Shown piece after piece: positions 44 through 48,197 of a DNA stretch of 64,000 bases. Numbering within the stretch: the stretch's first letter is position 1; the number at the start of each line of letters is the position of its first letter. Made by a program: the position numbers and the translations under genes. The stretch comes from an uncultured bacterium (lineage in GTDB: Bacteria; Patescibacteriota; Minisyncoccia; Phycocordibacterales; Phycocordibacteraceae): positions 361,363 to 425,362 of the forward strand of contig CAWKPH010000001.1 in assembly GCA_963851445.1 (NCBI GenBank). The letters are read 5' to 3'. The notes under the pieces are model-generated. The model was given only the letters and a program-made list of their open reading frames with translations, did not search any database and was not told where the DNA came from.

Positions 44-577
44 CTAGTTTATAAAGACATCATGCGCGCGAGCATCTGTTTTGTGAAGAGTCGCCATAAT
101 GCCACTAGAATTTTTTTCAACCACACAAGTATAATCCACGGGTTGATCCCAAGGTTCTCGTACAAGTAGCGTTTTTACAAATTGATCAGCGAAACAAAAT
201 CCAATCCGTAGCCATGAGGCAGGAACATAGGAGAGAAACCGGTCATACCATCCGCCGCCTCTACCGTGTCGTGTGCCAAGAGTATCGAATTGTCGTCCGG
301 GGATGAGAATGAAACCTGAGCGCTCATTTGCAAGTCTGAGAGCGCTTGCTGCTTCTTCAGAGGGATCAAGCTCCGCGCGCGGAGCGATTGTATATAAATC
401 AACTTTCGGTCCAATGAAAATAAGCTCTTCAGGAGACACTTCTGCTTGCAATGCTGAATACGTTATACCGAAAGAGTAAGACTCTAAAAGCTTTGGAAGC
501 GCGGCATCTACTACCGATTTTGTATCTTTGGTTTCACCTTTTTCCTTTCTGCTGTCAATATCTCGACTTCTTTCCAT
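44..577 (-). CDS. 5-formyltetrahydrofolate cyclo-ligase (MTHFS/YgfA family)
   Basis: 177-aa ORF. The C-terminal GGGWYDR motif matches the family signature GxGYYDR. Length is typical for the family. The start abuts the divergent neighbouring gene with no intergenic spacer, so the start codon is uncertain. Confidence 0.7.
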   Translation of the reverse strand: MERSRDIDSRKEKGETKDTKSVVDAALPKLLESYSFGITYSALQAEVSPEELIFIGPKVDLYTIAPRAELDPSEEAASALRLANERSGFILIPGRQFDTLGTRHGRGGGWYDRFLSYVPASWLRIGFCFADQFVKTLLVREPWDQPVDYTCVVEKNSSGIMATLHKTDARAHDVFIN

Positions 578-1279
578 GTGCCGTATACTAGCACTATGAA
601 TTCAGAGAAATACGAAATAGAGATAAAAAGTCTCTTAGGAAACTCCTCAAATGCGGATAAACTCCGAGCCGACCTAAAAGCTATTGATGCCGATTCGTCC
701 TGTATATCAAGCTATACACAACTCAATCACTACTTTGAAGGTGGAGATTCTAGAATGCTTGCCAATAGGATAGGTACACATTTGGTCGGTGATGAGTATG
801 AGAGGATGGAACGCATTGTAAATAATGGCAAGAATATATCAGTACGAACACGTGAGATGAATGGAAAAGTGTATATTGTCATGAAGGCTTCAATTGGAGA
901 TGATTCAAGTTCGAATGGTGTTGCGCGTCTCGAGGTTGAAGCATTAATTCCCAATATGACGCTTGATCAACTTGATGCAGAAGTACTCGCTGCTGGCTAC
1001 AAGTACCAAGCAAAATGGTCACGTACGCGCGAAGAGTATAAGGTTAAAGACATCACCGTATGTCTTGATAAGAATGCGGGATATGGATACCTCGCGGAAT
1101 TCGAGAAAGTGGTTAATGATGCTAGTAAAGCGGAAGAAGCGAAGCGAGAAATTGGTCTATTCATGCAGCAGCTTGGAGTTGTGGAACTGGCGCAAGATCG
1201 ACTTGAGCGCATGTTTGCGTATTATAATGAGCACTGGCCAGAGTATTATGGCACCGAAAATATCTTTACGATCGAATAA
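578..1279 (+). CDS. CYTH-domain protein (triphosphate tunnel metalloenzyme / class IV adenylyl cyclase-like)
   Basis: 233 aa. The N-terminal YEIEIKSLL resembles the CYTH EIERKFL signature. Acidic motifs are spread through the protein. The true start may be the internal Met at about 596. Confidence 0.5.
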   Translation: MPYTSTMNSEKYEIEIKSLLGNSSNADKLRADLKAIDADSSCISSYTQLNHYFEGGDSRMLANRIGTHLVGDEYERMERIVNNGKNISVRTREMNGKVYIVMKASIGDDSSSNGVARLEVEALIPNMTLDQLDAEVLAAGYKYQAKWSRTREEYKVKDITVCLDKNAGYGYLAEFEKVVNDASKAEEAKREIGLFMQQLGVVELAQDRLERMFAYYNEHWPEYYGTENIFTIE

Positions 1280-1281
1280 AT

Positions 1282-1836
1282 ATGTATCTATCTGACTCTG
1301 ATATCGAGAAGGCCGTAAAGAAAGGGGATCTTACGCTTGAACCATTTGATAAAAAGCGTTTACAACCCGCAAGCTACGATATTCTTCTTGGGAATCGGTT
1401 TCTTATTTCCGAGGCTCATAAACATGGATATATTGATCCGGAAAAAAAGGTATTTCCTGAGATGCGCGAGATCATACTAAGCGATAAAGAGGAGTTCATT
1501 CTTCATCCAGGGATTGTGGTACTTGGTTTTTCTCACGATTTATTTGGTTCAAACAAATATCTTATTCATTTGAACGGTAAGAGTTCGCTCGCACGTATTG
1601 GACTTATCGTACACAATACCGCAGGACTCATTAATCCGGGACATTATCTACATGTCGTGTTCGAGCTCTATAATACCAATAGCATCCCAATCATTCTCCG
1701 GCCTAAAATGCCAATAGCGCAGCTCACGTTTTCTGAACTCTCGTCCCCTCCCAAAAAGAGCTACGAAAAGCTTGGGCGGTATGGGAAGGGAAAGGATAAT
1801 TGGAAAGGTGGAGCAGCGCCTCGGAAGCGCAAATAA
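1282..1836 (+). CDS. dcd: dCTP deaminase
   Basis: 184 aa. Carries the PASYDIL and GLINPG-type motifs of the dCTP deaminase/dUTPase fold. Lies immediately upstream of thyA. Confidence 0.8.
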   Translation: MYLSDSDIEKAVKKGDLTLEPFDKKRLQPASYDILLGNRFLISEAHKHGYIDPEKKVFPEMREIILSDKEEFILHPGIVVLGFSHDLFGSNKYLIHLNGKSSLARIGLIVHNTAGLINPGHYLHVVFELYNTNSIPIILRPKMPIAQLTFSELSSPPKKSYEKLGRYGKGKDNWKGGAAPRKRK

Positions 1837-1858
1837 GTTATAACTCAAGAATAATCCT

Positions 1859-2821
1859 ATGCCCCTAAAACACCCTGAATATCAGTACCTCGATTTACTA
1901 CAGGAAGTTCTTAATGATGGCGAGGAACAGGTCGATAGTGGTACTGGGGTAAAAACCTATAGTCTCTTTGGTCGTCAAATACGTTTTGATCTTTCTGAGG
2001 GTTTTCCACTTCTTACAACCAAGCGCGTGTATTGGACAGGCGTACTTCATGAATTGTATTGGTTCTTGTCCGGGCAGTCGAATATAAAATACCTTGTCGA
2101 TAACAACGTGCACATTTGGGACGATTACCCATTCAAGATATATTCAGAAAAAGTTGAAAAGGGTGAGGCACCAGTACTCACGAAGGATGAATTCATTGAA
2201 AAAATCGCAAAAGATGAAACATTTGCAAAAGAGAATGGGGAGTTACCCCATATTTATGGCGAACATTGGCGTCGCTGGGAAGCAACCGATGGACGGAAAA
2301 TAGACCAACTTTCCTGGGTAGTGGATGAATTACGCAAGGATCCCGATGCTCATAACACACTTGTTTCTTCATGGAATCCTGAATATATGTATGCAATGGC
2401 ACGTCCTGGAGAAGGGGCACGATTCCCAATCTGTCACAATCTCTACCAGCTCAATATAAAACACGGGAAAGTATGTCTGCAACTCTATCAGCGCTCAGCA
2501 GATATATTTCTCGGCGTCCCTTTTAATATTGGAAGCTACGCGCTTCTTACCTGCATTATCGCGAAGATTCTCGGCCGTGAGCCAGGGGAATTCGTACACA
2601 CATTTGGCGATGTCCATATATATGAAAATCATCGCGAACAAGCTAAAGAACAACTTTCTAGAAAGCCGAAAGACTTCCCAACTCTTTCATTCACTCAAAA
2701 CTTCGATTCACTCGATTCCTTCCGCCCTGAATTCGTGAAGCTCGAAAACTATACCCCAGAAGCAACCATCAAAGCCGAACTTACCGTATCTGGTGGCTAC
2801 AACAAGAAAATTCACGGATAA
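1859..2821 (+). CDS. thyA: thymidylate synthase
   Basis: 320 aa. Carries conserved ThyA motifs (GVPFNIGSYALLT, the catalytic Cys region PICHNLYQ, and DxHIYxNH). Confidence 0.9.
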   Translation: MPLKHPEYQYLDLLQEVLNDGEEQVDSGTGVKTYSLFGRQIRFDLSEGFPLLTTKRVYWTGVLHELYWFLSGQSNIKYLVDNNVHIWDDYPFKIYSEKVEKGEAPVLTKDEFIEKIAKDETFAKENGELPHIYGEHWRRWEATDGRKIDQLSWVVDELRKDPDAHNTLVSSWNPEYMYAMARPGEGARFPICHNLYQLNIKHGKVCLQLYQRSADIFLGVPFNIGSYALLTCIIAKILGREPGEFVHTFGDVHIYENHREQAKEQLSRKPKDFPTLSFTQNFDSLDSFRPEFVKLENYTPEATIKAELTVSGGYNKKIHG

Positions 2822-2824
2822 AAC

Positions 2825-4123
2825 ATGGAGTATCAGCACCTTAAAAAAGAAGATCCTGACGTCTTTACAACTGTCGAAGGCGAAGAGAAACGAGAAGCCG
2901 AAGGACTCGAGCTGATTCCTTCGGAGAATTATGTTTCGATCGCAGTGCGTGAAGCCATGGGTTCCGTCTTCACCAATAAATATTCTGAAGGCTATCCGGG
3001 CAAACGATACTACGGTGGACAGGAATACACCGATCAGGTTGAGTCGATCGCGATAGAGCGCGCAAGGAAACTCTTCAATTGTGATCATGCAAACGTGCAA
3101 CCACTCGGCGGTGCGGCTGCAAACATTGCTGCGTATTTCGCATGGCTTGAACCTGGCGATACGATTCTTGGCATGGACCTCTCTCACGGGGGGCACCTCA
3201 CCCATGGTTCTCCGGTCACGTATATGGCAAAGCTCTTCCGATTTGTTCGGTACGGAATGAAGAATATCGACACAGGGGAAATTGACTATGATGCACTACG
3301 TGAAAGTGCACTGAAGGAGAAGCCAAAAATAGTCCTTGCTGGATTCTCTGGATATCCACGCGAACTCGATTGGCAAAAGATATCTGATATTGCAAAAGAA
3401 GTCGGCGCCGTCGCAATGGCTGATGTTGCGCATATTGCAGGGCTCATCGCTGGTGGAGCTGCAAAAAACCCCTTCGACTATGGTTTTCAAATAGTAACGA
3501 CAACGACGCACAAAACTCTTCGCGGACCGCGCGGCGGCATGATTCTTTCGAAGGGAATTGTCTCAAGTCCTATAAAGGCTCCTGAAAAGACCATAGAGAA
3601 TCTACCAACATTAATCGATCGGAGCGTATTCCCGGGATTTCAGGGTGGTCCCCATATGCACCAAATAGCAGCCAAGGCAGTCTCGTTCCATGAAGCACTG
3701 CAGCCCGCATTCAAGAACTACGCTCAGCAGATCATTAAGAACGCGCAGGCAATGGCAGAAGTGCTCAAAGCCAATAATGTGCGTATGATCGCTGGAGGAA
3801 CTGACAACCATCTCATTCTCGCTGATGTGTTCGGTTCGCTCGGTATTTCTGGCGGAGAGGCAGAAAAACTTCTTGATGAGGCAGGTATCACACTCAACAA
3901 GAATTCAATTGCTGACGACACACGCAAACCATTTGATCCGTCGGGTATACGGTTTGGTACACCTGCAATGACAACCCGGGGCTTTATGGAACCCGAGTCC
4001 AAGCAGGTCGCAGAGATCATGGTTGAGGTACTCACGAAGCGCGATGCAGCAACTGTCTCCAAAGCACGCGAGCAAATTCGCACGCTTGCTATTTCTCATC
4101 CAGTTCCAGAGTCCTTTGTGTAA
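2825..4123 (+). CDS. glyA: serine hydroxymethyltransferase
   Basis: 432 aa. Carries the LIPSENYVS motif and the PLP-lysine motif TTTTHKTLRGPRGG. Confidence 0.95.
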   Translation: MEYQHLKKEDPDVFTTVEGEEKREAEGLELIPSENYVSIAVREAMGSVFTNKYSEGYPGKRYYGGQEYTDQVESIAIERARKLFNCDHANVQPLGGAAANIAAYFAWLEPGDTILGMDLSHGGHLTHGSPVTYMAKLFRFVRYGMKNIDTGEIDYDALRESALKEKPKIVLAGFSGYPRELDWQKISDIAKEVGAVAMADVAHIAGLIAGGAAKNPFDYGFQIVTTTTHKTLRGPRGGMILSKGIVSSPIKAPEKTIENLPTLIDRSVFPGFQGGPHMHQIAAKAVSFHEALQPAFKNYAQQIIKNAQAMAEVLKANNVRMIAGGTDNHLILADVFGSLGISGGEAEKLLDEAGITLNKNSIADDTRKPFDPSGIRFGTPAMTTRGFMEPESKQVAEIMVEVLTKRDAATVSKAREQIRTLAISHPVPESFV

Positions 4124-4476: not shown

Positions 4477-6192
4477 ATGGAAGAACAGATCAAAAATGCG
4501 GTACAGAAGGCGCTGTCCGAGCTTGGTGCGGGTGCTGTAAATTTTGTTGTTGAGTGGCCCACTGAAATGAGTTATGGAGACTACGCAACCAATGCTGCTC
4601 TTGCCGCAGCAAAACCGCTCCAGAAAAAACCACAGGAAGTAGCGGAACTCCTCCTACCAAAACTCAAGGAAATTTTAGGGAGTGCGCTTACTAGTATCGA
4701 GATTGCTGGCCCTGGTTTTATAAATTTTACGCTCTCACCTGAATCCGTAACTAAAGCGATGCTAGAGATTGAGGGGCAGGGGAATACGTGGGGTAACGGA
4801 AACGAAAACAATGGCAAATGCATAATGATCGAATATTCAAATCCAAATCCTTTCAAAGAACTACACATTGGTCATTTAATGAGCAATGTCGTAGGTGAAT
4901 CACTCTCACGTCTGCTTGAAGCATCGGGTGCAAGGGTGCTACGAGATACATTCGGCGGAGATGTTGGTCCGCATGTGGCAAAAGCACTGTGGAGTCTAGA
5001 ACGAGATAAAGTTACCGACATCGTCAGTGCAAAAGAGATCGGGAAAGCATATTCGCATGGAGCTATCGCATATGAAGAAAGTAAAGAGGCAGCAAAAGAG
5101 ATTGATGAGCTAAACACACGTATATACGAAGTTGTCGGAAAACAAAATGAACCTCAGACGCTTTCACCAGAAGATCGTGAACTTCTCGATTTATGGCGCA
5201 AAGGCCGCGAAATTTCTATGGAAGAATTCGAGCGGCTTTTCAAACTACTTGGAACGAAGTTCGATTATACGTTTTTCGATAGCGATACGGTTGAGGGAGG
5301 CATGCGTGTCGTTCGTGATGGTCTTGAGAAGGGGATTTTCGAAAGGAGCGATGGCGCAATCATATATGACGGCGACAAGCGAGCACAAACTAGCGAAAAT
5401 ACTATTCCAGAAAAGGGCCTTCATACACTTGTTTTCATCACAAGTCGTGGCACTCCGACGTATGAGACGAAAGACATCGGTCTGGCGTTCCTGAAAGAAG
5501 AACGTGCCGAAACCGACGAGGTTATTATTGTTACGGCAATTGAGCAAATCGGGCACTTCAGAGTATTCCTAGCGGCTCTCGCTGAGATTGCACCACTTCT
5601 TTCAAAAAAGACCAAACATGTTTCGCATGGACTCTTGCGTCTTCCAACTGGCAAAATGTCGTCACGCAAAGGGAACGTCATCACCGCAGTTGAGCTTCTC
5701 GAGGATATGGTAAAGCGTGCTAGTGAAAAGAATACGGATCCAATTGTCGCAGAGCAAGTAGCCATTGGCGCCGTAAAATACATGATTCTACGACAATCAC
5801 CTGGTTCAGATATCGTATTTGATCCAGAGAAATCACTTTCGCTTGAAGGTGACTCAGGACCATATCTGCAGTATGCGCTCGTGAGGGCAAAATCAGTTGT
5901 CACGCAATCAGCTTCTGGAGAAGGAACGGATGCCCCAGAAACACCTTATTTTCTCGAACGTCTATTGATTAGATTCCCTGAGGTCGTAAAGCGTAGTGAA
6001 CACGAGCTTGCGCCAAATTACCTCGCACATTATTTAACACAGCTCGCGAGTCAGTGGAATTCTTTTTATGCGCAAGAACGAATCATCGGGGGCGACTACG
6101 AAGCTTATAAACTTAAACTAGCCCGCGCTTTCATACTAACAATGCAAAATGGCCTACATCTGCTTGGCATACCAGCTCCCGAGCGCATGTAG
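4477..6192 (+). CDS. argS: arginine--tRNA ligase
   Basis: 571 aa. Class I HIGH motif (NPFKELHIGHLMSNVVGE). C-terminal MSSRKG and a DALR-type anticodon-binding region. Confidence 0.85.
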   Translation: MEEQIKNAVQKALSELGAGAVNFVVEWPTEMSYGDYATNAALAAAKPLQKKPQEVAELLLPKLKEILGSALTSIEIAGPGFINFTLSPESVTKAMLEIEGQGNTWGNGNENNGKCIMIEYSNPNPFKELHIGHLMSNVVGESLSRLLEASGARVLRDTFGGDVGPHVAKALWSLERDKVTDIVSAKEIGKAYSHGAIAYEESKEAAKEIDELNTRIYEVVGKQNEPQTLSPEDRELLDLWRKGREISMEEFERLFKLLGTKFDYTFFDSDTVEGGMRVVRDGLEKGIFERSDGAIIYDGDKRAQTSENTIPEKGLHTLVFITSRGTPTYETKDIGLAFLKEERAETDEVIIVTAIEQIGHFRVFLAALAEIAPLLSKKTKHVSHGLLRLPTGKMSSRKGNVITAVELLEDMVKRASEKNTDPIVAEQVAIGAVKYMILRQSPGSDIVFDPEKSLSLEGDSGPYLQYALVRAKSVVTQSASGEGTDAPETPYFLERLLIRFPEVVKRSEHELAPNYLAHYLTQLASQWNSFYAQERIIGGDYEAYKLKLARAFILTMQNGLHLLGIPAPERM

Positions 6193-6237: not shown

Positions 6238-9200
6238 ATGGCAGGTTCCAAGGAGCACTCTGAGACACCTAAATCAGACAGTACGAAATCCGATGCCGCA
6301 CAGCGCGAGGAACGTACACTGACTTTCTGGCGCGATAATGAGATATTCAAGAAATCGCTCGAAAAGCCAGCCCCTAAGGGAAATTTCATATTTTACGAAG
6401 GACCCCCAACCGCCAATGGCCAACCAGGTCTTCATCACCTGGAGTCGCGAGCATTCAAAGACGCGCTTCCACGCTATAAGACTATGCGCGGCTACCGTGT
6501 TCCGCGCCGCGCTGGCTGGGATACCCATGGGCTTCCGGTAGAACTTCAGATCGAGAAAGAGCTTGGGTTTACGGGGAAAAAAGATATTGAAGCCTACGGC
6601 ATTGCGGCATTCAATAAGAAGTGTCGTGAAAGCGTTTTCAAATATGTTGATGAATGGGAGAAGTTCTCAAACCGAGTAGGATACTGGGTCGATCAGAGTA
6701 AGGCATATTTCACCTTCGATGCGCCGTACATGGAGTCAGTCTGGAATATCCTCAAGCATGTCTCTGAAGAAGGTCGTCTCTATAAGGATTACAAAGTAGT
6801 GCCATGGTGTGTACGCTGCGGAACTGCGCTCTCATCGCACGAGCTCGCGCAGGGCTATGAGGACGTGAAGGATCTCTCAATAACTGCAAAGTTTGAGCTG
6901 GTGGATGAGCCAGGAACATATTTCCTTGCATGGACAACGACCCCGTGGACGCTTCCTGGGAATGTCGCTCTCGCGGTAGGTGAAACCATTACCTATGGTC
7001 GTTACACAAACGGTACCGAAAAAGTAATCTTGGCCACAGCGCGCGCAAAAGAAGTTCTGGACGAGTCATGGAAACCTGAAGAGGAGATGCCTGGGAGTGC
7101 ATTAGTAGGAAAAAAATATAAACCGTTGTATCCGTTTGCAGAGAAACTTGCGGCAGACGAGGAGAAAAAGAAATTCGAGAATGCGTTTACAGTATACGGA
7201 GCTGAGTTTGTGACGACTGAAGACGGTACAGGTATTGTGCATAGCGCAGTCATGTATGGCCAAGAAGATTTTGAATTAGGAACTAGAGTCGGATTACCAA
7301 AGGTGCATCTTGTAGCTCCTGATGGTCACTTTATCCAGAGCACTGAATTCCTAGAAGGAAGATTCGTGAAAGATGAGGAGTTAGCGGTTGATATTGTGAA
7401 AGATCTTGCAGCACGAACTCCGAATTCACTTCTCTTTGCGAAGGGAAAGCATGAGCACTCGTACCCGTTTTGTTGGCGATGCAAGACTCCTCTCATCTAC
7501 TATGCGCGCGACTCGTGGTACATCCGCATGCAGGACTTGCGCGATACCCTTGTTGCCGAGAATGAGAAGGTGCACTGGGAGCCTGAGCATACTCGTGATG
7601 GCCGCATGGGTGAGTGGCTTCGAGGCGCCAAGGATTGGGCGATCTCACGTGAGCGCTACTGGGGAACACCACTACCGGTTTGGCAGAGCGAGGACGCAAT
7701 CGAGCGCATTATGATCGGTTCCATTGAAGAGCTCAAGACTCGCACGAAGAAATCTGGAAATAAGTATTTTTTAATGCGGCACGGCGAAGGCGAACACAAT
7801 GTCAAAGGAATCTTAAGTTCAAACCTCGCTGATGATAAATATGGGCTTACTGCTACAGGGCGCGCACAGGTACAGGAACAAGCAGAAAAATTGAAGGGTA
7901 GCGGCATAACTCACATCTATGCATCCCCATTTCGTCGGACGCGCGAGAGTGCAGAGATCATGGCCGATGTTCTAGGAATTTCACATGACTCAATTGTGTA
8001 TGATGAGACGCTTCGTGAGATTGATTTCGGCGATCTTGATGGTAAACCATTTGGTGAATTTCTTGAGTATGAAGAAAAAAATATGCAAGCCTATAGCGAT
8101 TCGCTTCCAAATGGAGAAAGTTATCTCGATGCGAAACGCAGATTCGGCGGGTTCCTCTACAATCTCGAAAAAGTTCATGCAGACAGCATCATATTAATGA
8201 TTTCTCATGGCATGGCACTCGAGGCGCTCAAAGCGGTCGTTGAAGGCGCCGGCGACATCGAATCAAAACACATTACTGACACACTGGAACCGAAACCAGG
8301 GGAAATGATGGAACTCGATTTCGTACCGCTTCCACGTAACGAAAATTACGAGCTCGATCTTCACCGTCCGTACATTGATGAAATAACGCTAGTTAGCGAC
8401 TCAGGGAAAGAATTAGAGCGGGTGAAGGATGTCATCGATGTATGGTTTGATTCTGGCGCCATGCCGTTTGCTGAGGATCACTACCCATTCGAGAACAAAG
8501 AGTGGGTTGAGGGGCCAGGCTATCCCGCGGACTACATATCAGAGGCGATTGATCAGACACGTGGGTGGTTTTATACACTCCTCGCAGTTGGTGTACTCCA
8601 GGGGAGAGGGCATGCATACAAGAACGTAATTTGCTTAGGTCACCTGCTCGATGAAAAGGGACAAAAGATGAGTAAAAGCAAGGGAAATGTGATTGCTCCA
8701 CTTGAAGCTGTTGATCAGTGGGGAGCTGACGCGCTGCGTTTTTGGATGTATAGCGTAAACGCACCAGGCGATTCAAAGAATTTCGATGAAAAAACCGTTA
8801 AAGAGTCACTACGCACATTGTCGTGGCTAGAGAACAGCATGCGTTTCTACCAGCTTTTTGTCGATAATGATGGAGGACCAAAAGAAACTAATTCAGAGGA
8901 GCAAGTTATCGATTCGTGGATGCGCATTCGCAGCGCCGAAGTCGTGAATAGTACGACTTTTTACCTCGATAATTACAAACTGCTTGAAGCAACACGAACA
9001 ATAGCTTCGTTATTCGAAGACCTCTCACAATGGTATGTACGGCGTATTCGAGATCGCGCACGTGAAGGAGACGCGTCCGCGATTAGCACACTGCGTAACA
9101 CACTCAACATAAGTGCGCGTCTTCTCGCACCGTTCGCACCATTTCTTGCTGAGGAAGTATATCGTGCTGTTAAAAATGATATCGACCCTGAAAGCGTGCA

Positions 9201-9708
9201 CCTTACTGAATGGCCAGAGGAACCTATCTTATCAGAAGATGATAAGAAACTTCTCGAAGGGATGAGACAGGTACGCGCATTTGCATCAGAAGGACTTATG
9301 CTTCGTCAGAAGGCAGGCATTAAAGTGCGCCAGCCGCTCGCGAAGCTCTCGATTCCTGGAACTCTTTCCAAAGAACTCTGTGTGCTTCTTGCCGAGGAGG
9401 TAAACGTAAAAGTAATTGAGCAAGAGGCATCTGAAATGCAACTTGATATCGTGATTACAGATGAACTCATGGAAGCCGGAGACATACGTGAATTTATGCG
9501 CGCACTTGCTGATGCGCGTAAGGAACTCGGACTATCGCCTCGAGATCAAGTCACACTCACTATTAGTGAAAATGCGACCGGTACTCTTGAGGGAACAGTA
9601 TTTCCTGGTATAGCCAAACTCTCGTTTGGAGGAATTGTCGATCCCCCACACACTGCTGAACTTTCATTCGGAACAGTATCATTCCATATCTCACGCGATG
9701 CGACATAA
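6238..9708 (+). CDS. ileS: isoleucine--tRNA ligase with inserted histidine-phosphatase (PGAM-like) domain
   Basis: 1156 aa. HIGH-type motif PPTANGQPGLHH, KMSKSKGN, and the WCxRC zinc motifs of the editing/CP region. An inserted block at about nt 7762-8280 carries the hallmark histidine-phosphatase motifs: LMRHGEGEHN, SPFRRTRESA and ISHGMAL. Confidence 0.9.
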   Translation: MAGSKEHSETPKSDSTKSDAAQREERTLTFWRDNEIFKKSLEKPAPKGNFIFYEGPPTANGQPGLHHLESRAFKDALPRYKTMRGYRVPRRAGWDTHGLPVELQIEKELGFTGKKDIEAYGIAAFNKKCRESVFKYVDEWEKFSNRVGYWVDQSKAYFTFDAPYMESVWNILKHVSEEGRLYKDYKVVPWCVRCGTALSSHELAQGYEDVKDLSITAKFELVDEPGTYFLAWTTTPWTLPGNVALAVGETITYGRYTNGTEKVILATARAKEVLDESWKPEEEMPGSALVGKKYKPLYPFAEKLAADEEKKKFENAFTVYGAEFVTTEDGTGIVHSAVMYGQEDFELGTRVGLPKVHLVAPDGHFIQSTEFLEGRFVKDEELAVDIVKDLAARTPNSLLFAKGKHEHSYPFCWRCKTPLIYYARDSWYIRMQDLRDTLVAENEKVHWEPEHTRDGRMGEWLRGAKDWAISRERYWGTPLPVWQSEDAIERIMIGSIEELKTRTKKSGNKYFLMRHGEGEHNVKGILSSNLADDKYGLTATGRAQVQEQAEKLKGSGITHIYASPFRRTRESAEIMADVLGISHDSIVYDETLREIDFGDLDGKPFGEFLEYEEKNMQAYSDSLPNGESYLDAKRRFGGFLYNLEKVHADSIILMISHGMALEALKAVVEGAGDIESKHITDTLEPKPGEMMELDFVPLPRNENYELDLHRPYIDEITLVSDSGKELERVKDVIDVWFDSGAMPFAEDHYPFENKEWVEGPGYPADYISEAIDQTRGWFYTLLAVGVLQGRGHAYKNVICLGHLLDEKGQKMSKSKGNVIAPLEAVDQWGADALRFWMYSVNAPGDSKNFDEKTVKESLRTLSWLENSMRFYQLFVDNDGGPKETNSEEQVIDSWMRIRSAEVVNSTTFYLDNYKLLEATRTIASLFEDLSQWYVRRIRDRAREGDASAISTLRNTLNISARLLAPFAPFLAEEVYRAVKNDIDPESVHLTEWPEEPILSEDDKKLLEGMRQVRAFASEGLMLRQKAGIKVRQPLAKLSIPGTLSKELCVLLAEEVNVKVIEQEASEMQLDIVITDELMEAGDIREFMRALADARKELGLSPRDQVTLTISENATGTLEGTVFPGIAKLSFGGIVDPPHTAELSFGTVSFHISRDAT

Positions 9709-10273
9709 ATATGCAACAACAGGACTGGTGCTCTCACGCACTCCGCTTGGAGAGGCAAGTGCGTTCATAAGCCTTCTCACACCTGACCTAGGTCTTATAC
9801 ATGCGCGCGCTCAGAGTGTGCGTAAGCCGGGCGCGAAACTTGCTCCAGCACTCCAAACCTTTGCAGAGTCAGATGTTATTCTCGTTCGCGGCAAAGAGGG
9901 TTGGCGACTTTCAGGAGCGGTCCTCGCTACAGATTGGTTTGGAAAAATGGACGCCTCTGCGCGCACGCGTGCAGGCCGCATTACCGGCCTCCTTCAGCGT
10001 CTCGTTCATGGTGATACGAATGATGGACTTTTCTTTACTATCATCTCCGATTTTATTTCTGTACTCATCTCTAACAAGAAAGACGAATCGGAGGCTGATG
10101 CTGCAGAGATACTCGCCGCACTTCGCATACTACGAGCACTCGGTGTCGATGCTGGTGAACTTCCTGGTGGTCTTGAGGTTGGTTATGCTTCCGAAGTCCT
10201 CGCACCGATTATGGAAAAGCGGTCTGACTACATTGTTCGAATTAATCACGGCATCACGGCATCAGGGTTGTAG
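9698..10273 (+). CDS. recO: DNA repair protein RecO
   Basis: The N-terminal OB-fold pattern GLVLSRTPLGEASAFISLLTPDLGLIHARAQSVRK matches RecO. The start at 9698 overlaps the ileS stop by 11 nt. The ORF upstream of this Met is inside ileS. Confidence 0.7.
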   Translation: MRHKYATTGLVLSRTPLGEASAFISLLTPDLGLIHARAQSVRKPGAKLAPALQTFAESDVILVRGKEGWRLSGAVLATDWFGKMDASARTRAGRITGLLQRLVHGDTNDGLFFTIISDFISVLISNKKDESEADAAEILAALRILRALGVDAGELPGGLEVGYASEVLAPIMEKRSDYIVRINHGITASGL

Positions 10274-10314: not shown

Positions 10315-10644
10315 ATGGAAAGAAAGGTGATAAAGTTCCGGGACTTTCTTGCCGATCTCGTACAAAAAGGAGAAAAGGATTCGACATGGAGACTCTTTGA
10401 TGATAAAGATCTCCAAAAAGGAGACCGGGTTGATTTGGTTAATTGGAATACAGGTGAGAAATTCGCTGAAGCTATTCTTACCGAAGTCCATGAAAGGTCT
10501 ATGGGAGATTTAAAGCCAATCGACTTTGAAGGGCACGAGAAATTTGAAAACGAGGAAGAAATGTACAAAGCATATCGAACCTATTACGGAGATATGGTTG
10601 GACCAGAGACTCTGGTCAAGATTATCCATTTTAGTCTGATCTGA
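10315..10644 (+). CDS. ASCH-domain protein (YqfB-like)
   Basis: 109 aa. The pattern of hydrophobic and Gly-Asp-Arg residues resembles the ASCH beta-barrel fold (GEKDSTWRLFDDKDLQKGDRVDL...). Family assignment is tentative. Confidence 0.45.
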   Translation: MERKVIKFRDFLADLVQKGEKDSTWRLFDDKDLQKGDRVDLVNWNTGEKFAEAILTEVHERSMGDLKPIDFEGHEKFENEEEMYKAYRTYYGDMVGPETLVKIIHFSLI

Positions 10645-10695
10645 TGTAGATTCCAGCATCGTCTTTACAGCCACAAATCACAAAGAATTGCTATA

Positions 10696-11094
10696 ATGCC
10701 AAGCATGAAAGAGTACGAAGATGCAATCAGGACCTACCTACAGGAGCGAAAGTGGGATGATCTTCGTCCGAGCGATCTTGCTAAGTCAGTAGCGATTGAG
10801 GCTGCAGAATTACTTGAGTTGTTTCAGTGGACAAATCAGACCCTTGTAGAAGTGAAGCAAGATCCTGAAAAATTAGAAGCGATCAAGAAAGAGCTGGCAG
10901 ACGTACTTATTTATTGCTTCGATATGAGTGTTCTTTTGGGTTTTGATACGGGAGATATTCTTCTCAAAAAACTTGAAAAAGCAAAGCAAAAATACCCCGC
11001 ACATTTATTTAAAGATCGTGACGAAAATCAAGACGCCGGTTCGGAGGATATTTATTGGAAAATAAAAAAGGATCATCGAATGAAAGGAGAATAG
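10696..11094 (+). CDS. MazG-like nucleotide pyrophosphohydrolase
   Basis: 132 aa. EAAELLE ... ELADVLIY helical pair characteristic of the MazG/dCTPase all-alpha NTP-PPase fold. Confidence 0.6.
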   Translation: MPSMKEYEDAIRTYLQERKWDDLRPSDLAKSVAIEAAELLELFQWTNQTLVEVKQDPEKLEAIKKELADVLIYCFDMSVLLGFDTGDILLKKLEKAKQKYPAHLFKDRDENQDAGSEDIYWKIKKDHRMKGE

Positions 11095-11108
11095 GCCTCT
11101 GAGAAAAT

Positions 11109-11525
11109 ATGCAAAGGGAAATAGATATTCACAAAACTGCAGGAATTCTAATTCAAGATCGAAAATTTCTCGTTACTAGACCGAAGGGTAAGAGCTATTT
11201 TATTTCTCCAGGAGGGAAAGTTGAACTGGGAGAAACTACGTACGAGGCTTTAAAAAGAGAGTTAAGGGAGGAAATTGAAATAGATATAGACACTTCTGAC
11301 TTGCAGGAGTTCGGTACATTTTACGCACCAGCCCAGGGACAAAAGAATAAGTATCTTCAGATGGATGTTTTTCTAGTTACAAAATGGAAAGGAGAAATAA
11401 AACCAGCGAATGAGATTGAAGAAACTATGTGGATCGATTCAAAATTACCCCCAGATATAGAGGTGGGGTCAATATTCCAACATGACGTATTACCCAGACT
11501 AAAAAGTCTTGACCTTATCGATTAA
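11109..11525 (+). CDS. Nudix hydrolase (MutT-like)
   Basis: Canonical Nudix box: GGKVELGETTYEALKRELREEIEI (Gx5Ex7REUxEExGU). Confidence 0.8.
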   Translation: MQREIDIHKTAGILIQDRKFLVTRPKGKSYFISPGGKVELGETTYEALKRELREEIEIDIDTSDLQEFGTFYAPAQGQKNKYLQMDVFLVTKWKGEIKPANEIEETMWIDSKLPPDIEVGSIFQHDVLPRLKSLDLID

Positions 11526-11575
11526 GATTCTTATACCGTCCCAAGAATCCCCAGCAACTCTTGTATACTTAGGGT

Positions 11576-11998
11576 ATGAATCTACAAGTTGGAGTCAAGG
11601 TACTTTTAAAAAACTCTGATGGCAAAATCCTTATTCTTAAACGCTCTGAAGAGAAATACGGTAAGACAAGCGGATCATGGGACATAGTAGGTGGAAGAAT
11701 CGATCCAGGAACATCTCTTCTTGAGAATTTAGAAAGAGAGGTATTAGAAGAAACCAAATTATCGTTCGTTTCAGAAGCAAAGCTCATAGCCGCACAGGAT
11801 ATTATTCCGAATCAGGAACGACACATTGTTCGGCTCACGTACGTAGCTCACACAAAAGGAAAGCCTGAATTAGATTTGATTGAACACAGCGAATATAAAT
11901 GGGTGACATTTCAGAATCTTATCAAAGAGACAGATTTGGATATCTACGTCGGAATGCTCCTCAAAAGAGGACTACTAAGAGAGGATTCTTGGGATTAA
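11576..11998 (+). CDS. Nudix hydrolase
   Basis: Nudix box: GGRIDPGTSLLENLEREVLEETKL. Confidence 0.8.
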   Translation: MNLQVGVKVLLKNSDGKILILKRSEEKYGKTSGSWDIVGGRIDPGTSLLENLEREVLEETKLSFVSEAKLIAAQDIIPNQERHIVRLTYVAHTKGKPELDLIEHSEYKWVTFQNLIKETDLDIYVGMLLKRGLLREDSWD

Positions 11999-12062
11999 AG
12001 CTCCTAATAGTCATGAGTTTGCAAACCAACCACCCAAAGCATATTCTCATCACAGGCGTACA

Positions 12063-12521
12063 ATGGAGAAAATGATGAGGAAAGGCGTAGACTACCCAGG
12101 CATCGCAATTGTCTTTGCGTGTCATGATGGCAATGGCAATTTCCTTCTTTCTAAAAGGAGCGTCGAGTCACGGGACGAAAAAGGCATGTGGGCACAAGGC
12201 GGTGGGGCCCTCGAACTTGGTGATACCGAAGAATATACCCTCAGAAAAGAGATCATGGAGGAATACTGCACTGAAGTAATTGAGATTGAATATCTAGGGC
12301 ATCGCGAGGTTCTTCGTGAACAAGAAGGGGTAAAAACTCACTGGATTGCTCACGACTTCAAAGTATTAATTGATCGGTCAATGGTTAAAAACGGTGAGCC
12401 CCATAAAGCAGACGAAATCGGATGGTTTTCGCTTGAGGAACTTCCGAGTCCAATGTATTCCCAGTGGTCAATCTTTTATGAGTTATACAAAGACAAGCTC
12501 AGCGCACCGTCTCTTCAATAG
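12063..12521 (+). CDS. Nudix hydrolase
   Basis: Nudix-box variant: GGGALELGDTEEYTLRKEIMEEY. This is the third tandem Nudix paralog. Confidence 0.7.
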   Translation: MEKMMRKGVDYPGIAIVFACHDGNGNFLLSKRSVESRDEKGMWAQGGGALELGDTEEYTLRKEIMEEYCTEVIEIEYLGHREVLREQEGVKTHWIAHDFKVLIDRSMVKNGEPHKADEIGWFSLEELPSPMYSQWSIFYELYKDKLSAPSLQ

Positions 12522-12603: not shown

Positions 12604-14517
12604 ATGTCTCCTGAGGATTCTGCCGATGCTTTGGAAAAGATACGAGAGCGATTATATTCGCCAACAGCGAACACATCGTTTCATGAACCTTCTCTTTCGC
12701 CTCGGGTAGCACCTGACGAGAGCCAACACTGGCAACCCCCACCTCCCCAACCCCAACCGAAGTCGCATAAGAAGCGTCTTTCGTGGACAGTGTGGTTTCT
12801 CATTGGTGCCACATTGTTCTTTCTCATTGCTATCGGTCTCTCATCACTGTATCTACTACGTGGCACTAATACAGTCTCGAGCAATAACATCGATATTAGT
12901 GTTCAGGGACCTACCTCTATCGCAAGCGGCTCCACCGTTCCACTTGTTCTCAGTATCGTAAATCACAATTCCGCAGACATCATTAATGCGAACATAGAAA
13001 TGGATTTTCCTGATGGCACGCGCTCGTCAGACGATGTAACACAGCCTCTTGTTCGTTACACCTACGATCTTGGAACTCTGGTTGCAGGAGGAACCGCAAC
13101 CTCCACTACCCAAGCCGTACTATTTGGGAGCGTAAATCAATCTATTAGTATTCCAGTAACCCTCACATACCAAACACCTAATTCGAACGCTACATACACA
13201 AAGACTCAAAATTACAGCGTAACAATCACGAGCTCACCGATAACCATCACGGCGACCTCGGTATCAAGTGTCGCATCAGGACAGCCGTTCATGATTGCGG
13301 TTGCAGTGCGTTCGAATGCGACAACTCCGCTCACCAACGTCGCAGTCGCCGCCGTGTATCCAACATCAGGTTTCACCACAACGAATTCCGGAAATGCCAC
13401 TTCAACGCCGGGGCCGTTCTATGAGATCGGCACACTAGAGCCCGGTGAGGAAAAGGACTTTACGATCGGCGGCGTGCTTTCAGGTACTGATGCTAATCAA
13501 CAGAGCTTCCAATTCACGGTAGGTACTGCAAGTTCAGAGGGAACGACACAGATATCAGTTCCATATGCGAGTGCGACAACCAATGTCACAATAACCCAGC
13601 CATTTCTTGCGACGACACTGACCCTCAACAATGATGCCACTGATCAAACGATAGCTACTGCAGGACAGCCAGTCGCCGGTCTCGTGTCCTGGTCAAATAC
13701 ACTCTCGTCGCAAATACAAAGCGGGCAAGTGACGATTCAATTGAAGGGAGAGGCGCTTGATCCAAACAGTGTGCAGGTCACCAATGGTTATTTCGATTCG
13801 TCGAACGATACAATCATTTTCAACGGACAGAGTGATCCAAGCCTACAAACCCTTAATCCAGGTGATTCCGGCAGTGCCACCTTCTCATTTGCCTCGAAAA
13901 CTGGTGCTGCGCTTGCACAGATACAGAATCCAACCATACAGTTATCTGTTAGTGTTGCAGGAGAATCCGGCAGTAGCGGTTCCCAGAGTATTTCCGATAA
14001 CCTCACCCGTAACGTACTTGTTGCAACTGATCTTGGGTTGTCCTCAAGCATCGTCCATACGACGGGGCCATTCCCTAATTCAGGTCCATGGCCGCCGATT
14101 GCAAATCAAACAACAACTTATACCGTGGAGCTCTCGATTACGAATACTCTGAATGACGTCGCTGGCGGTGAAGTTACGACCATCCTACCCCAGTATGTGA
14201 ATTTCACCGGAAATATGACTCCTAACGATGGATCTCTTTCATACGATGCCGCCTCACGCACCGTCACCTGGAAAGTGGGTTCTATACCAGCAGGAACTGG
14301 CATCAGCGGCACTCCGCCGCTCACGGCAGCATTCCAGATTTCATTGACCCCAAGTCTCTCGCAAGTCGATTCAAGTCCTATTCTCGTAGGGAATCAGGAA
14401 CTTACAGGCCAAGATCGCTTCACTGGCGCACAGGTAGAGAGCACTGCCAACGCACTCACCACAGAGACCACGACCGACCCTGGGTATCAGCCCTCATTTG
14501 GCAAGGTTCGCAATTAA
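12604..14517 (+). CDS. membrane-anchored cell-surface protein with repeated beta-sandwich (CARDB/DUF11-like) domains
   Basis: 637 aa. Pro-rich cytoplasmic N-terminus, a single TM helix (WTVWFLIGATLFFLIAIGLSSLYLL), then Thr/Ser/Asn-rich repeats with a recurring G.TL.GE/VAGG pattern. Confidence 0.55.
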   Translation: MSPEDSADALEKIRERLYSPTANTSFHEPSLSPRVAPDESQHWQPPPPQPQPKSHKKRLSWTVWFLIGATLFFLIAIGLSSLYLLRGTNTVSSNNIDISVQGPTSIASGSTVPLVLSIVNHNSADIINANIEMDFPDGTRSSDDVTQPLVRYTYDLGTLVAGGTATSTTQAVLFGSVNQSISIPVTLTYQTPNSNATYTKTQNYSVTITSSPITITATSVSSVASGQPFMIAVAVRSNATTPLTNVAVAAVYPTSGFTTTNSGNATSTPGPFYEIGTLEPGEEKDFTIGGVLSGTDANQQSFQFTVGTASSEGTTQISVPYASATTNVTITQPFLATTLTLNNDATDQTIATAGQPVAGLVSWSNTLSSQIQSGQVTIQLKGEALDPNSVQVTNGYFDSSNDTIIFNGQSDPSLQTLNPGDSGSATFSFASKTGAALAQIQNPTIQLSVSVAGESGSSGSQSISDNLTRNVLVATDLGLSSSIVHTTGPFPNSGPWPPIANQTTTYTVELSITNTLNDVAGGEVTTILPQYVNFTGNMTPNDGSLSYDAASRTVTWKVGSIPAGTGISGTPPLTAAFQISLTPSLSQVDSSPILVGNQELTGQDRFTGAQVESTANALTTETTTDPGYQPSFGKVRN

Positions 14518-14538: not shown

Positions 14539-15936
14539 ATGGAAAAAGAAAAGAACGCTCCTGTAAGTCTCGAAACAATTGTTGCTCTTTGTAAACGACG
14601 AGGTTTTGTATTTCAGGGATCGGAGATCTATGGCGGTCTTGCTGGTACCTTTGACTATGGTCCCTTGGGACTTGCACTCAAGAGGAATATCGAAGCACTC
14701 TGGTGGAAGCGCTTTGTCGACATGCGTGACGACATGTATGGCATCGACTCAGCCATCCTCATGAATCCGCGGGTATGGGAAGCGTCGGGGCATGCTGACA
14801 CGTTTAATGACCCACTCGTAACAGACAGCAAAACAGGTAAGCGCTATCGCCTCGATCATTTGCTCGAGGAAGCGGGGAGTGATCCTGCAGGTATGACCAT
14901 GGAAGAGATGGGAAGAGCACTCAAGGAAAAAGGGATCAAAAGTCCCGACGGGAATGAATTCAGTGATCCACGGCAATTCAATATGATGTTTAAGACATCG
15001 GCAGGTTCTGTTGAAAGCGGAGAATCAGATCTCTATTTGCGACCCGAGACCGCACAGGGTATGTTCGTGAATTTCAAGAATATTATTGATGCATACCATC
15101 CAAAGCTGCCATTTGGCATCGCGCAAATCGGGCACGCATTTCGCAACGAGATCGCACCACGAGAATTCCTTTTCCGTGTACGTGAGCTCGAGATCATGGA
15201 ATTTGAATACTTCCTGAACCCTTCAGAATGGGAGAAGTTGTTCGAAGACTGGCGCGTGGAAGCGCATGCATGGTTTAAATCGCTCGGTTTTGATGAGGGT
15301 GACATTAAGGAAGTCGAGGTTCCAGAGAGCGACCGCGCGCACTATTCAAAGCGCACCGTCGACTTCTATTTCAATTTTCCGAATGGTTTCAAAGAGATCG
15401 GTGGTATTGCGTACCGCACCGATTTCGACCTGGATAATCACATGAAGCGAAGCGGCGAAGATTTAAGTTATCTTGATCCAGAAACAAATGAACGATCGAC
15501 GCCACACGTGATAGAGCCTACCTTTGGCCTGGGGCGCCACGTACTTGCGGTGCTCACTAAATTCTATAGCGAAGACGAGCTCGGAGGAGAGAAACGTACC
15601 TTTTTGAAACTTCCGCCTAGTCTTGCACCTATCAAAGCGGCAGTATTTCCACTTCTTAAAAATAAACCAGAGCTCATCGCAAAAGCACAGGAGGTTAGAA
15701 ATGAACTTCGTAAGATACACCCCGCGATTGCGTGGGACGATAACGGCAATATCGGCAAGCGCTATCGGAGGCAAGATGAAATCGGTACACCTTGGTGCAT
15801 TACAATTGATTTCGACACGCTCGGCGAGACGCCGGAACTGAAGGATACGGTTACGCTACGAGATCGAGATACTGGTGCGCAAGAACGACTTACCGTGACC
15901 CAGATCGGTGAGTGGATGCGTAAAGCACTCACGTAA
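14539..15936 (+). CDS. glyQS: glycine--tRNA ligase (class II, dimeric type)
   Basis: 465 aa. FRNEIAPREFLFRVRELEIMEFEYF is class II motif 2 of the alpha2-type GlyRS. C-terminal anticodon-binding domain. Confidence 0.9.
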   Translation: MEKEKNAPVSLETIVALCKRRGFVFQGSEIYGGLAGTFDYGPLGLALKRNIEALWWKRFVDMRDDMYGIDSAILMNPRVWEASGHADTFNDPLVTDSKTGKRYRLDHLLEEAGSDPAGMTMEEMGRALKEKGIKSPDGNEFSDPRQFNMMFKTSAGSVESGESDLYLRPETAQGMFVNFKNIIDAYHPKLPFGIAQIGHAFRNEIAPREFLFRVRELEIMEFEYFLNPSEWEKLFEDWRVEAHAWFKSLGFDEGDIKEVEVPESDRAHYSKRTVDFYFNFPNGFKEIGGIAYRTDFDLDNHMKRSGEDLSYLDPETNERSTPHVIEPTFGLGRHVLAVLTKFYSEDELGGEKRTFLKLPPSLAPIKAAVFPLLKNKPELIAKAQEVRNELRKIHPAIAWDDNGNIGKRYRRQDEIGTPWCITIDFDTLGETPELKDTVTLRDRDTGAQERLTVTQIGEWMRKALT

Positions 15937-32875: not shown

Positions 32876-33540
32876 GAGGAGTAGACACTGATCCTTGACA
32901 TCTGAATACGTAAATTAAAGGTATCAACGTCATGTTTCGAAAGAGACATGACAGTGAATTGCATTAGATCATAAAATTGTGGTGTTCAGGTTTCCGCACA
33001 GGAAACGTGAAGGGTGCACGGTGGATGCCTAGGCTTAGAAAGGCGATGAAGGACGTGACTAGTCTGCGAAATGCTCCGGGGAGGTGACTTGTAACCTTTG
33101 ATCCGGAGGTGTCCGAATGAGGAAACTCAATCCGAATGGATTACCTATCTCTATTGAAATAGGAGCAAACCCAGGGAAGTGAAACATCTCAGTACCTGGA
33201 GGAAAAGAAAACAACAGCGAGTTACTTTCCGTTCGCCCGATGCTTCGGGCGGATGGAAAGTAACTCTCGCGATTCCCTAAGTAGCGGCGAGCGAAACGGG
33301 AAATAGCCCAAACCAGATACTTCGGTATGTGGGGTTGTAGGGCAGAGGTTCCGTACTTGTATGGCAAGAGTTACAAAAGACTTATATAACGGAAACTGCT
33401 GGGAAGCAGTGCCCTAGAGGGTAATGGCCCCGTACGTGAAATATATGATCACTCTTGTGCTTCTATTCCTGAGTAGTTCGAGACACGAATAGCTCGGATG
33501 AATCTGCCGGAACTAACCGGTAAGGCTAAATACTTTCTAA

Positions 33541-33586
<46 letters not shown>

Positions 33587-34159: not shown

Positions 34160-34191
<32 letters not shown>

Positions 34192-35065: not shown

Positions 35066-35258
35066 TCTGCATAGGATTCGTCCTATGCAGAACGGATTGG
35101 GACGATTATAGGAGACCGTAAACAGTTCTGAGAAGATTACGTCATTAAAAGCTACCTCTTTCTTTGGAAACGAAGATTGAATCCGCAACTCAAATGAGAG
35201 GCCATACGTTGCGCTCCCGAAAGGGATGAAGATATGGTCCTTCTTGAAGGAATAGAAG
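35066..35258 (+). other. intron-like / intervening sequence 1 in 23S (about 193 nt)
   Basis: It splits the universally conserved CCUAAGGU|AGCG(A)AAUUCCUUGUC sequence (E. coli about 1925-1931). It begins with a perfect hairpin, ctgcatagga-ttcg-tcctatgcag. It contains gggacgattatag, complementary to the upstream exon ctataatcgtcc. Confidence 0.5.

Positions 35259-46736: not shown

Positions 46737-48197
<1,461 letters not shown>

Follow-up and report, generated by a model that had tools for sequence, protein, structure and literature searches.

The window analysed here is a 64,000-nucleotide (nt) stretch of DNA from an uncultured member of the Patescibacteriota (contig CAWKPH010000001.1, assembly GCA_963851445.1). 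A six-frame scan of the window found one ileS, which is located between argS and a recO-like gene (Table 1). This ileS encodes an isoleucyl-tRNA synthetase (IleRS) that has a second domain nested within its CP3 subdomain, and this second domain is a complete branch-1 histidine-phosphatase domain. The gap between argS and ileS is 45 nt and the recO-like gene overlaps the end of ileS by 11 nt (9698-9708); the three genes are probably co-transcribed.

Table 1. Coordinates of argS, ileS and the recO-like gene in the window and of the parts of ileS discussed in the text (aa, amino acids; ORF, open reading frame).
Feature	Position (nt)	Strand	Remarks
argS	4477..6192	+	Arg_tRNA_synt_N, tRNA-synt_1d, DALR_1
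ileS, 1156-aa type-2 isoleucyl-tRNA synthetase with nested phosphatase	6238..9708	+	stop codon included; uninterrupted ORF
Class I signature, non-canonical G64-L65-H66-H67 (G/AXHH instead of HXGH)	6427..6438	+	alignment to 8c8w
CP1 editing hallmarks TTTPWT (aa 233-238), GTGIVH (aa 330-335), D344	6934..7269	+	invariant in 62 aligned homologs
CP3 hairpin, first half (PLPVWQSEDAIERIMIGSIEELKT)	7669..7740	+	zinc-ligand cysteines of the reference replaced by Ser/Ala; reference reads vweCegCqhq
Inserted segment relative to insert-free IleRS2, aa 502-704; phosphatase proper approximately aa 505-696	7741..8349	+	gap in the 8c8w alignment
His_Phos_1 (PF00300) match, aa 511-670	7768..8247	+	E = 2.6e-30, 106 bits, whole protein
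RHG motif: R514, H515 (predicted phospho-accepting nucleophile), G516	7777..7785	+	
R567, second phosphate-binding arginine	7936..7938	+	
E594, predicted proton donor	8017..8019	+	
H657-G658, second catalytic histidine	8206..8211	+	
Site 2 surface loop, aa 746-763	8473..8526	+	empty here; in relatives hosts a second His_Phos, a GNAT or a ValRS insert
KMSKS, aa 810-814	8665..8679	+	
C-terminal part: CP3 second half (ELDLHRPYID), WFDSG, KMSKS, anticodon-binding domain, type-2 C-terminal domain (DUF5915)	8350..9705	+	
recO-like gene	9698..10273	+	RecO_N

Apart from the insert, the ileS product has the characteristics of a type-2 IleRS. It scored 819.6 bits with TIGR00392, the curated IleRS equivalog model (cutoff 621.4), and the two stretches matched by this model flank the insert. 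The Pfam matches occur in the order tRNA-synt_1 (aa 28-508), His_Phos_1 (aa 511-670), synthetase again, Anticodon_1 and DUF5915 (aa 1045-1113). With Foldseek, the top structural match was the P. megaterium IleRS2 (8c8w, TM 0.80) with IleRS1 structures ranked below it, and the best sequence match of the synthetase core was likewise this IleRS2. The presence of DUF5915 and the IleRS2 fold correspond to the type-2 C-terminal organization. An AlphaFold (AF2) model of the whole product had a mean predicted local distance difference test score (pLDDT) of 87 and a predicted template modelling score (pTM) of 0.79. The GxHH form of the class I signature is found in 115 of the 120 nearest homologs and KMSKS in 119. 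Structures of isolated IleRS editing domains match aa 206-410 (1wk8, E = 1.2e-25), and the C-terminal part aligns to 8c8w residues 485-924. From its sequence, the synthetase part looks fully functional.

We also considered whether this could be one of the acquired mupirocin-resistance enzymes, MupA or MupB. The models for these (NF000257 and NF000258) gave 690.7 and 679.2 bits, respectively, against cutoffs of 1900, and the ileS product is a chromosomal housekeeping IleRS2. The G/AXHH motif has been documented in IleRS2 enzymes that keep normal activity and have a Ki for mupirocin up to 1000-fold higher (Brkic et al., PMC10485003). By analogy, the whole lineage is predicted to have intrinsic high-level resistance to mupirocin from its GxHH signature.

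To place the insert, we used the alignment with 8c8w. Residues 501 and 705 of the ileS product align to residues 476 and 485 of the 8c8w chain, so that approximately 200 aa are found in place of an 8-residue loop. The insertion point is between both halves of the CxxC...CxxC zinc knuckle of the P. megaterium enzyme, that is, in CP3. This subdomain links CP2 with the Rossmann fold's second half, and IleRSs vary in its topology; its zinc motif is present in T. thermophilus and is missing from S. aureus and Candida IleRS (PMC7191050). In the insert-bearing family, the four CP3 cysteine positions are occupied by Ser, Ala or Gly and there is no Cys among the commonest family patterns listed.

A first-pass annotation, made from the DNA alone, had proposed that a branch-1 histidine phosphatase is inserted in frame, with the CP/zinc region on one side of it and the LDLHRPY...WFDSG segment on the other. 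The match to PF00300 and the 8c8w alignment bear this out. All of the peptides quoted in support of that proposal (PLPVWQSEDAIERIMIGSIEELK at aa 478-500, LMRHGEGEHN, SPFRRTRESA, ISHGMAL, LDLHRPYIDEI starting at aa 706, WFDSGAMPF starting at aa 736, and KMSKS) occur where it placed them. It was also correct that KMSKS is displaced by approximately 200 residues; the distance between HIGH and KMSKS is approximately 746 aa as compared to approximately 537 aa in 8c8w. The span given for the domain, 7750-8290 (aa 505-685), is in the right location and falls slightly short of the true extent, with the final beta-strand (GEMMELDF) reaching aa 695 (nt 8322). The checks that had been suggested included a search with the His_Phos_1 model, alignment to a canonical IleRS, structure prediction and a survey of relatives, and the outcome of each of these, given above and below, agrees with the proposal.

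In the AlphaFold model of the whole protein, pLDDT was 90-97 in the inserted domain and above 90 at both junctions. Because of these values, the model suggests a compact, independently folded domain in a defined position, not a floppy tether. The junctions read ...KKSGNKYF and ...PLPRNENYE, the family consensus for the second being PLPHN followed by E or D. The insert has a GC content of 0.452, as compared to 0.485 for the remainder of ileS. When nt 7500-8600 were searched for scars of a DNA insertion event, there were just short (10-19 nt) and imperfect (74-92%) direct or inverted repeats, which often occur by chance. The single internal stretch of the model with pLDDT below 50 is aa 749-752, in the empty site 2 loop.

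When the inserted block was excised and compared to PF00300, the match was strong (E = 6.6e-32, 111.2 bits as compared to a gathering score of 21.7). R514, H515, R567 and H657 were each invariant in the 120 nearest homologs. The position of E594 was Glu in 115 and Asp in four of these, and N521 was kept in 113. Very similar results were obtained with 50%-identity cluster representatives, where R514 was found in 150/150, H515 in 149/150, R567 in 156/156 and H657 in 145/146; across 158 domains from such representatives, retention of the catalytic residues was at least 97%. Over the 120 homologs, the mean identity to the query was 46% for the insert and 70% for the synthetase core. These comparisons indicate that the catalytic set of the insert is strictly conserved while the remaining domain evolves faster than the synthetase.

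A model of the domain by itself (pLDDT 90, pTM 0.88) had the characteristic alpha/beta fold of histidine phosphatases. The nearest folds to this model were those of small-molecule phosphomonoesterases, namely the phosphoserine phosphatase PspA (4ij5, score 22.6), glucosyl-3-phosphoglycerate phosphatase (6s2q, 22.0), PhoE (1h2e, 21.4), the riboflavin-pathway histidine phosphatase HFP (9mmh, 21.1) and CobC (6e4b, 20.7). Several matches to the protein phosphatases SixA, PGAM5 and Sts-2 scored 14-16. The insert missed the equivalog cutoffs for named phosphatases, with 71.2 as compared to 162.9 for CobC (TIGR03162), 59 to 350 for PspA, 75.7 to 261 for GpmB and 33.4 to 74.5 for SixA. Since every curated equivalog model failed, a superfamily placement is possible and a substrate assignment is not. 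Together, the sequence and the model support the idea that the insert is a complete histidine phosphatase of branch 1 resembling PhoE, PspA and CobC, and it looks to be active.

The domain had also been described as similar to phosphoglycerate mutase (PGAM-like). This holds at the superfamily level. As an identification of a phosphoglycerate mutase it fails because the insert scored well below the cutoffs of all curated mutase models (TIGR01258, 22.3 as compared to 81.7; PRK14115, 19.6 to 305; PRK14120, 22.1 to 366; dPGM_arch, 88 to 225). In cofactor-dependent phosphoglycerate mutases (dPGMs), the proton donor is followed by ERHYG, the second histidine is part of HGNS and there is a tail at the C-terminus. 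The insert reads REIDFG and SHGMA at these places and the domain ends approximately 38 residues past H657. By these measures, the insert is mutase-like at the level of the superfamily alone and its identity as a phosphoglycerate mutase is rejected.

We examined how widely this arrangement occurs with hundreds of homologs drawn from JGI, ENA, NCBI and Logan. A protein identical to the ileS product is encoded on contigs from two independent assemblies, one in NCBI (687,765 bp) and one in Logan (49,987 bp). The 120 best homologs (60-69% identical, 1093-1199 aa) all contain PF00300, and their annotations place them in Parcubacteria, Paceibacteria, Kaiserbacteria or Patescibacteria. When each GTDB species was represented by a single genome, 36 Patescibacteria genomes had this arrangement and there was also one TsaC fusion (L035). 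There are approximately 90 IleS cluster representatives with the insert, in which the N-terminal part of IleS is 35-66% identical, and an exhaustive search of representatives recovered the insert in IleRS cores with identities as low as approximately 35-45%. These data indicate that the nested phosphatase is fixed across a large clade of Patescibacteria. The first-pass annotation called the architecture non-standard, which is true of bacteria in general and not of this lineage, where it is the norm. It had also named, as a finding that would count against it, a lineage-typical expansion segment lacking the catalytic His and Arg; the segment is indeed typical of the lineage, but these residues are retained.

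To gain a better understanding about where the domain came from, we looked for free-standing relatives. Among the best 150 representatives there were 43 genuine free-standing phosphatases with lengths of 159-251 aa (mostly 185-215 aa), and the 21 that were aligned had 30-36% identity with the insert. These proteins and the insert are collinear over their whole length, from the N-x-Y-[FY]-x-[LM]-RHG start to the GE..E[LI] strand at the end. A neighbour-joining tree of the inserted and free-standing domains was noisy, was affected by fragments from contig edges and did not resolve clades, and nearest neighbours were used in its place. We then examined the genomic context of 11 of the free-standing genes, eight of which were informative; the contigs of the other three (P0160, P0242 and P0250) were too short. 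The phosphatase is preceded by argS in six of the eight and has ileS no more than two genes away in four. At L041 (P0221), argS and the phosphatase are followed by an ileS of 984 aa without an insert that starts 1 nt past the phosphatase stop, and then by a 100-aa ORF and recO. At L045 (P0199) and L040 (P0176), argS and the phosphatase are followed by a convergent ileS. At L050 (P0270), the order is argS, a 51-aa ORF, the phosphatase, 23S_rRNA_IVP and an ileS of 999 aa. Two contigs end early, L047 (P0191) directly after argS and the phosphatase, and L053 (P0249) after argS, a 51-aa ORF, the phosphatase and a truncated 60-aa ORF that is not ileS. In the remaining two, L046 (P0174) and L051 (P0261), the phosphatase is unlinked, and an outer-membrane-protein neighbour at L051 suggests a source outside the candidate phyla radiation (CPR). 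The 51-aa ORF between argS and the phosphatase is itself conserved on two unrelated metagenomic contigs (L050, 1737-1892; L053, 2818-2973) and has a hydrophobic C-terminal half (MxSRLPKKYRxKY...).

As a comparison, the order is argS-ileS::His_Phos-recO in the window and at the 36 fusion loci. At none of these does the interval from argS to ileS contain a further copy of the phosphatase. The recO gene is found downstream of ileS in 29 of the 36 and likewise at L041. The insert-free IleRSs are enzymes of the same kind, and those of L041 and L050 have a G[VL]HH signature and keep the CP3 cysteines. The IleRS2 at L040 (minus strand, 1404-3866), next to a phosphatase gene, also has no insert and has lost all four CP3 cysteines, which shows that losing the knuckle and gaining an insert are separable events. 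Because the phosphatase sits between argS and ileS elsewhere and is inside ileS where this slot is empty, we infer with good support that the nested domain was derived by capture of a neighbouring gene from an ancestral argS-phosphatase-ileS cluster. The gene would have been relocated from immediately upstream of ileS to 1.5 kb inside of it.

The IleRS of the window has one copy of the domain. Some IleRS homologs have two, either in tandem at the CP3 position, which we refer to as site 1 (P0166, P0196), or with the second copy elsewhere, which in P0163 is the counterpart of the aa 746-763 loop and in P0133 and P0213 a position close to aa 880. The catalytic set is kept in every complete copy of these multi-copy homologs. 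One metagenomic IleRS homolog (P0188, 1066 aa) has three foreign in-frame domains: an IS200-like Y1 transposase in CP1 (aa 340-461) flanked by a duplicated IleRS stretch, a His_Phos at site 1 and a GNAT at site 2.

The domain also occurs in valyl-tRNA synthetase (ValRS) of Magasanikbacteria and Moranbacteria (proteins P0390-P0508). Of 112 full-length ValRSs, 35 carry a His_Phos insert, 21 at site 2 (after DTWFSS) and 14 at site 1 (the CP3 knuckle), in some cases alongside intact cysteines (P0395, P0437). A ValRS fragment (P0125) has four copies. The distribution of these inserts is patchy, with at least 20 state changes on the tree of the core and differences in presence between cores that are 93.5% identical. 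The divergence of the inserts tracks that of the cores weakly, and catalytic residues have been lost in seven of the 14 site-1 copies. These data indicate that related domains entered ValRS more than once, at either of two loops, and that some of the copies have decayed catalytically. In P0405 and P0479, an unrelated insertion of approximately 100 aa occupies the CP3 site.

Fusions of TsaC to His_Phos are rare, being limited to four clusters. The TsaC proteins of Paceibacteria/Minisyncoccia (P0274-P0387) are usually fused to a small enzyme. The commonest partner is Ogt-like (PF01035), and others are TruB, a 2H cyclic phosphodiesterase (phosphoesterase), methylpurine glycosylase (MPG), GNAT, NUDIX and, rarely, His_Phos.

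What the nested phosphatase does was considered next to these comparisons. It is somewhat more probable than not that it is an autonomous small-molecule phosphomonoesterase for which IleRS supplies a permissive loop and constitutive co-expression. One polypeptide would then have two separate catalytic units, an IleRS2 and a histidine phosphatase carried on the tip of the CP3 hairpin, which is peripheral. The phosphatase would hydrolyse a phosphomonoester via a phospho-His515 intermediate with E594 as the proton donor, and its substrate would be a small phosphorylated metabolite that diffuses in, rather than an intermediate of the IleRS reaction. What IleRS provides, apart from the loop, would be constitutive and stoichiometric expression inherited from the former argS-phosphatase-ileS operon. 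We favour this because the domain has the fold of a metabolite phosphatase, because supernumerary copies in ValRS have been gained, lost and inactivated, because unrelated domains (GNAT, Y1 transposase-like) also occupy loops of IleRS, and because gene fusion is rife in these genomes, as seen with TsaC and its many unrelated enzyme partners. It also fits with CP3 being peripheral and structurally variable (PMC7191050). The conservation of the catalytic residues in IleRS is compatible with this, since strong purifying selection is expected on a relocated neighbouring gene whatever its location.

Several observations suggest more than a neutral passenger. The argS-phosphatase-ileS neighbourhood has long been conserved, the domain has been nested more than once in IleRS and ValRS, at three loops in all, full catalytic sets are kept in arrays of two to four copies, and there were no simple end-to-end fusions among the 150 best representatives. 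A degree of physical coupling to synthetases of class Ia may have been selected. As regards the origin by gene capture, the informative neighbourhoods are few, with two of the eight unlinked.

The same conserved neighbourhood, the repeated nesting in two class Ia enzymes that are paralogs and the multi-copy arrays with intact catalytic sets favour the alternative that the phosphatase serves the aminoacylation cycle and that proximity to IleRS or ValRS was selected. We regard such a coupled function as less probable, and as the main rival. It could involve removal of a blocking 3'(2')-phosphate or pyrophosphate at the CCA end of tRNA ahead of charging, as a built-in repair or detoxification of tRNA ends, or hydrolysis of pyrophosphate (PPi), AMP or nucleoside diphosphates (NDP) that adenylate-forming enzymes release. 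The more specific proposal that the domain acts on the tRNA acceptor end (3'/2'-phosphate or toxin-added pyrophosphate) or on an adenylation product, and that proximity drove its repeated nesting in IleRS and ValRS, is in our opinion rather unlikely. A role at the tRNA end or with PPi would be needed by all 20 synthetases and not IleRS alone, and the gain, loss and decay of the ValRS copies would be unexpected if the synthetase needed them. The fold is closest to phosphatases of small metabolites, and no contact between CP3 and tRNA is reported in the IleRS structural literature that we consulted. The domain is also acidic (median isoelectric point 5.25, net charge -9), which is a weak argument since the tRNA-binding core is acidic too. 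The TsaC-His_Phos fusions might have been a clue to a function linked to tRNA, but this clue is weakened by their occurrence in four clusters alone and by the fusion of TsaC to many unrelated domains. The first-pass annotation had named Ap4A and ppGpp among possible substrates; neither is a phosphomonoester and, chemically, both are poor candidates for histidine phosphatases.

Three further functions appear still less probable than either autonomy or coupling. It is improbable that the domain is a protein phosphatase or regulatory module that dephosphorylates IleRS or another protein (at phospho-His, Ser, Thr or Tyr), for instance to reverse inactivation of the synthetase. SixA, PGAM5 and Sts are histidine phosphatases that act on proteins, and in the fold comparison this group was found at 14-16, with the small-molecule enzymes nearest. 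That the insert stands in for the 'missing' phosphoglycerate mutase of some Parcubacteria is very improbable. The best match among NCBIfam models on the phosphatase side was indeed the archaeal dPGM model, but this and all other curated dPGM models failed widely, the diagnostic motifs differ as described above, the domain of approximately 190 aa is without the dPGM insertion and C-terminal tail, and its nearest folds are phosphatases. Just as hard to accept is that the insert is a pseudoenzyme that merely fills in for the lost CP3 zinc knuckle. Loss of the zinc-ligand cysteines in the family and the persistence of some site-1 ValRS copies that have lost catalytic residues are in keeping with this. 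By contrast, none of the four core catalytic residues varies among the 120 IleRS homologs while the domain drifts to 46% identity, the L040 IleRS lost its cysteines and gained no insert, and the inserts of P0395 and P0437 coexist with intact ones. We give practically no credence to an artefact, since a chimeric assembly or mis-joined ORF is ruled out by the two assemblies, the hundreds of homologs, the continuous reading frame, the lack of a GC break and the lack of convincing boundary repeats, and a spliced intein-like element by the lack of a Hint/intein Pfam match and by a residue past the C-terminal junction that is not Cys, Ser or Thr.

Other genes in the window were noted on both sides of this cluster. 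Upstream of argS (44-4123) is a compact thymidylate/folate-cycle cluster with 5-formyl-tetrahydrofolate cyclo-ligase, a CYTH-domain protein, dCTP deaminase, thymidylate synthase and serine hydroxymethyltransferase; dihydrofolate reductase is just outside the start of the window, beside this cluster. Downstream of recO (10315-12521) are 'house-cleaning' genes encoding an ASCH protein (10315-10644), a MazG-like protein (approximately 10705-11094) and three consecutive NUDIX hydrolases (approximately 11109-11525, 11576-11998 and 12072-12521). Past the NUDIX genes come a gene for a 637-aa protein without a Pfam match (approximately 12604-14517) and two further aminoacyl-tRNA synthetase (aaRS) genes (approximately 14539-15936 and 17110-18555). 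The rRNA genes are on one strand but are not linked to each other, and their order is unusual, with 23S (32996-36553) and 5S (36636-36741) approximately 10 kb upstream of 16S (46732-48197) and tRNA-Ile GAU (48726-48800). The 23S gene spans 3558 nt as compared to a model of 2925 positions, leaving approximately 630 nt of extra sequence in which there was no ORF of at least 120 aa and no match to an intron family.

The closest precedent that we know of is CAAD, from the free-standing Curt1 family, which has been recruited repeatedly and independently into monomeric class I synthetases of cyanobacteria, in the case of GluRS via fusion with a neighbouring gene (PMC4893482). The CAAD synthetases (ValRS, IleRS, LeuRS, GluRS, ArgRS, MetRS and CysRS) resemble the system described here in having a nested domain, alternative sites and a clade-wise distribution. 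They differ in that CAAD is a non-catalytic membrane anchor, whereas the insert of the Patescibacteria is an enzyme with an intact active site, in CP3 within the insertion region of the Rossmann fold. The G/AXHH IleRS2 enzymes of Deinococcus radiodurans and Streptomyces griseus and the engineered P. megaterium enzyme (8c8w) have the same core, GLHH motif and type-2 C-terminal domain; these are approximately 1030 aa with no nested domain. The IleRSs of P. megaterium and T. thermophilus keep the CxxC...CxxC knuckle in CP3 that the insert-bearing family has lost.

Other known proteins resemble parts of this architecture. PspA, PhoE, HFP, CobC and the phosphatase of 6s2q are separate proteins that are 20-27% identical to the insert. 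At this level of identity, and with no curated model passed, no substrate can be transferred from such enzymes. NCBIfam has a model for an IleRS with another small enzyme domain (NF040702, ileS_w_GNAT), and P0188 likewise has a GNAT at site 2. The ileS product of the window has no GNAT domain and scored 290.9 with this model, as compared to a cutoff of 1999. The mycobacterial MutT1 (Nudix plus His_Phos; 3fjy, 9cxx) and PRK07238, an RNase H/acid phosphatase, join a His_Phos domain to a nucleic-acid enzyme in tandem, without nesting, and the PRK07238 cutoff (326) is not reached by the ileS product. No published description of a histidine phosphatase inside an aaRS was found, including in work on IleRS evolution, in a search that covered few subscription journals. 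The domain composition is on record in databases, and 'valyl-tRNA synthetase/broad specificity phosphatase PhoE' is the name of one JGI entry. The sequences are thus public, but there appears to be no description of the architecture, of where it came from or of how it is distributed.

The aaRSs are among the most conserved enzymes known and, to our knowledge, new catalytic domains are rarely accreted in those of bacteria. In an entire major lineage of Patescibacteria, a housekeeping IleRS has a second, apparently active enzyme inside of CP3, and the evolutionary route from a neighbouring gene to a nested domain is visible. The ValRS copies provide a natural comparison series of gain, decay and loss. 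One practical consequence is that counting genes by best hits in metabolic reconstructions of CPR organisms misses a phosphatase that is hidden within 'ileS'. If the phosphatase is a passenger, this would be a clean case of streamlined genomes packing whole genes into permissive loops of essential proteins. If it is coupled to charging, it would be a new accessory activity of translation in organisms with minimal genomes, and if that coupling is to the tRNA end or an adenylation product, this would be the first aaRS with a built-in phosphatase that serves charging.

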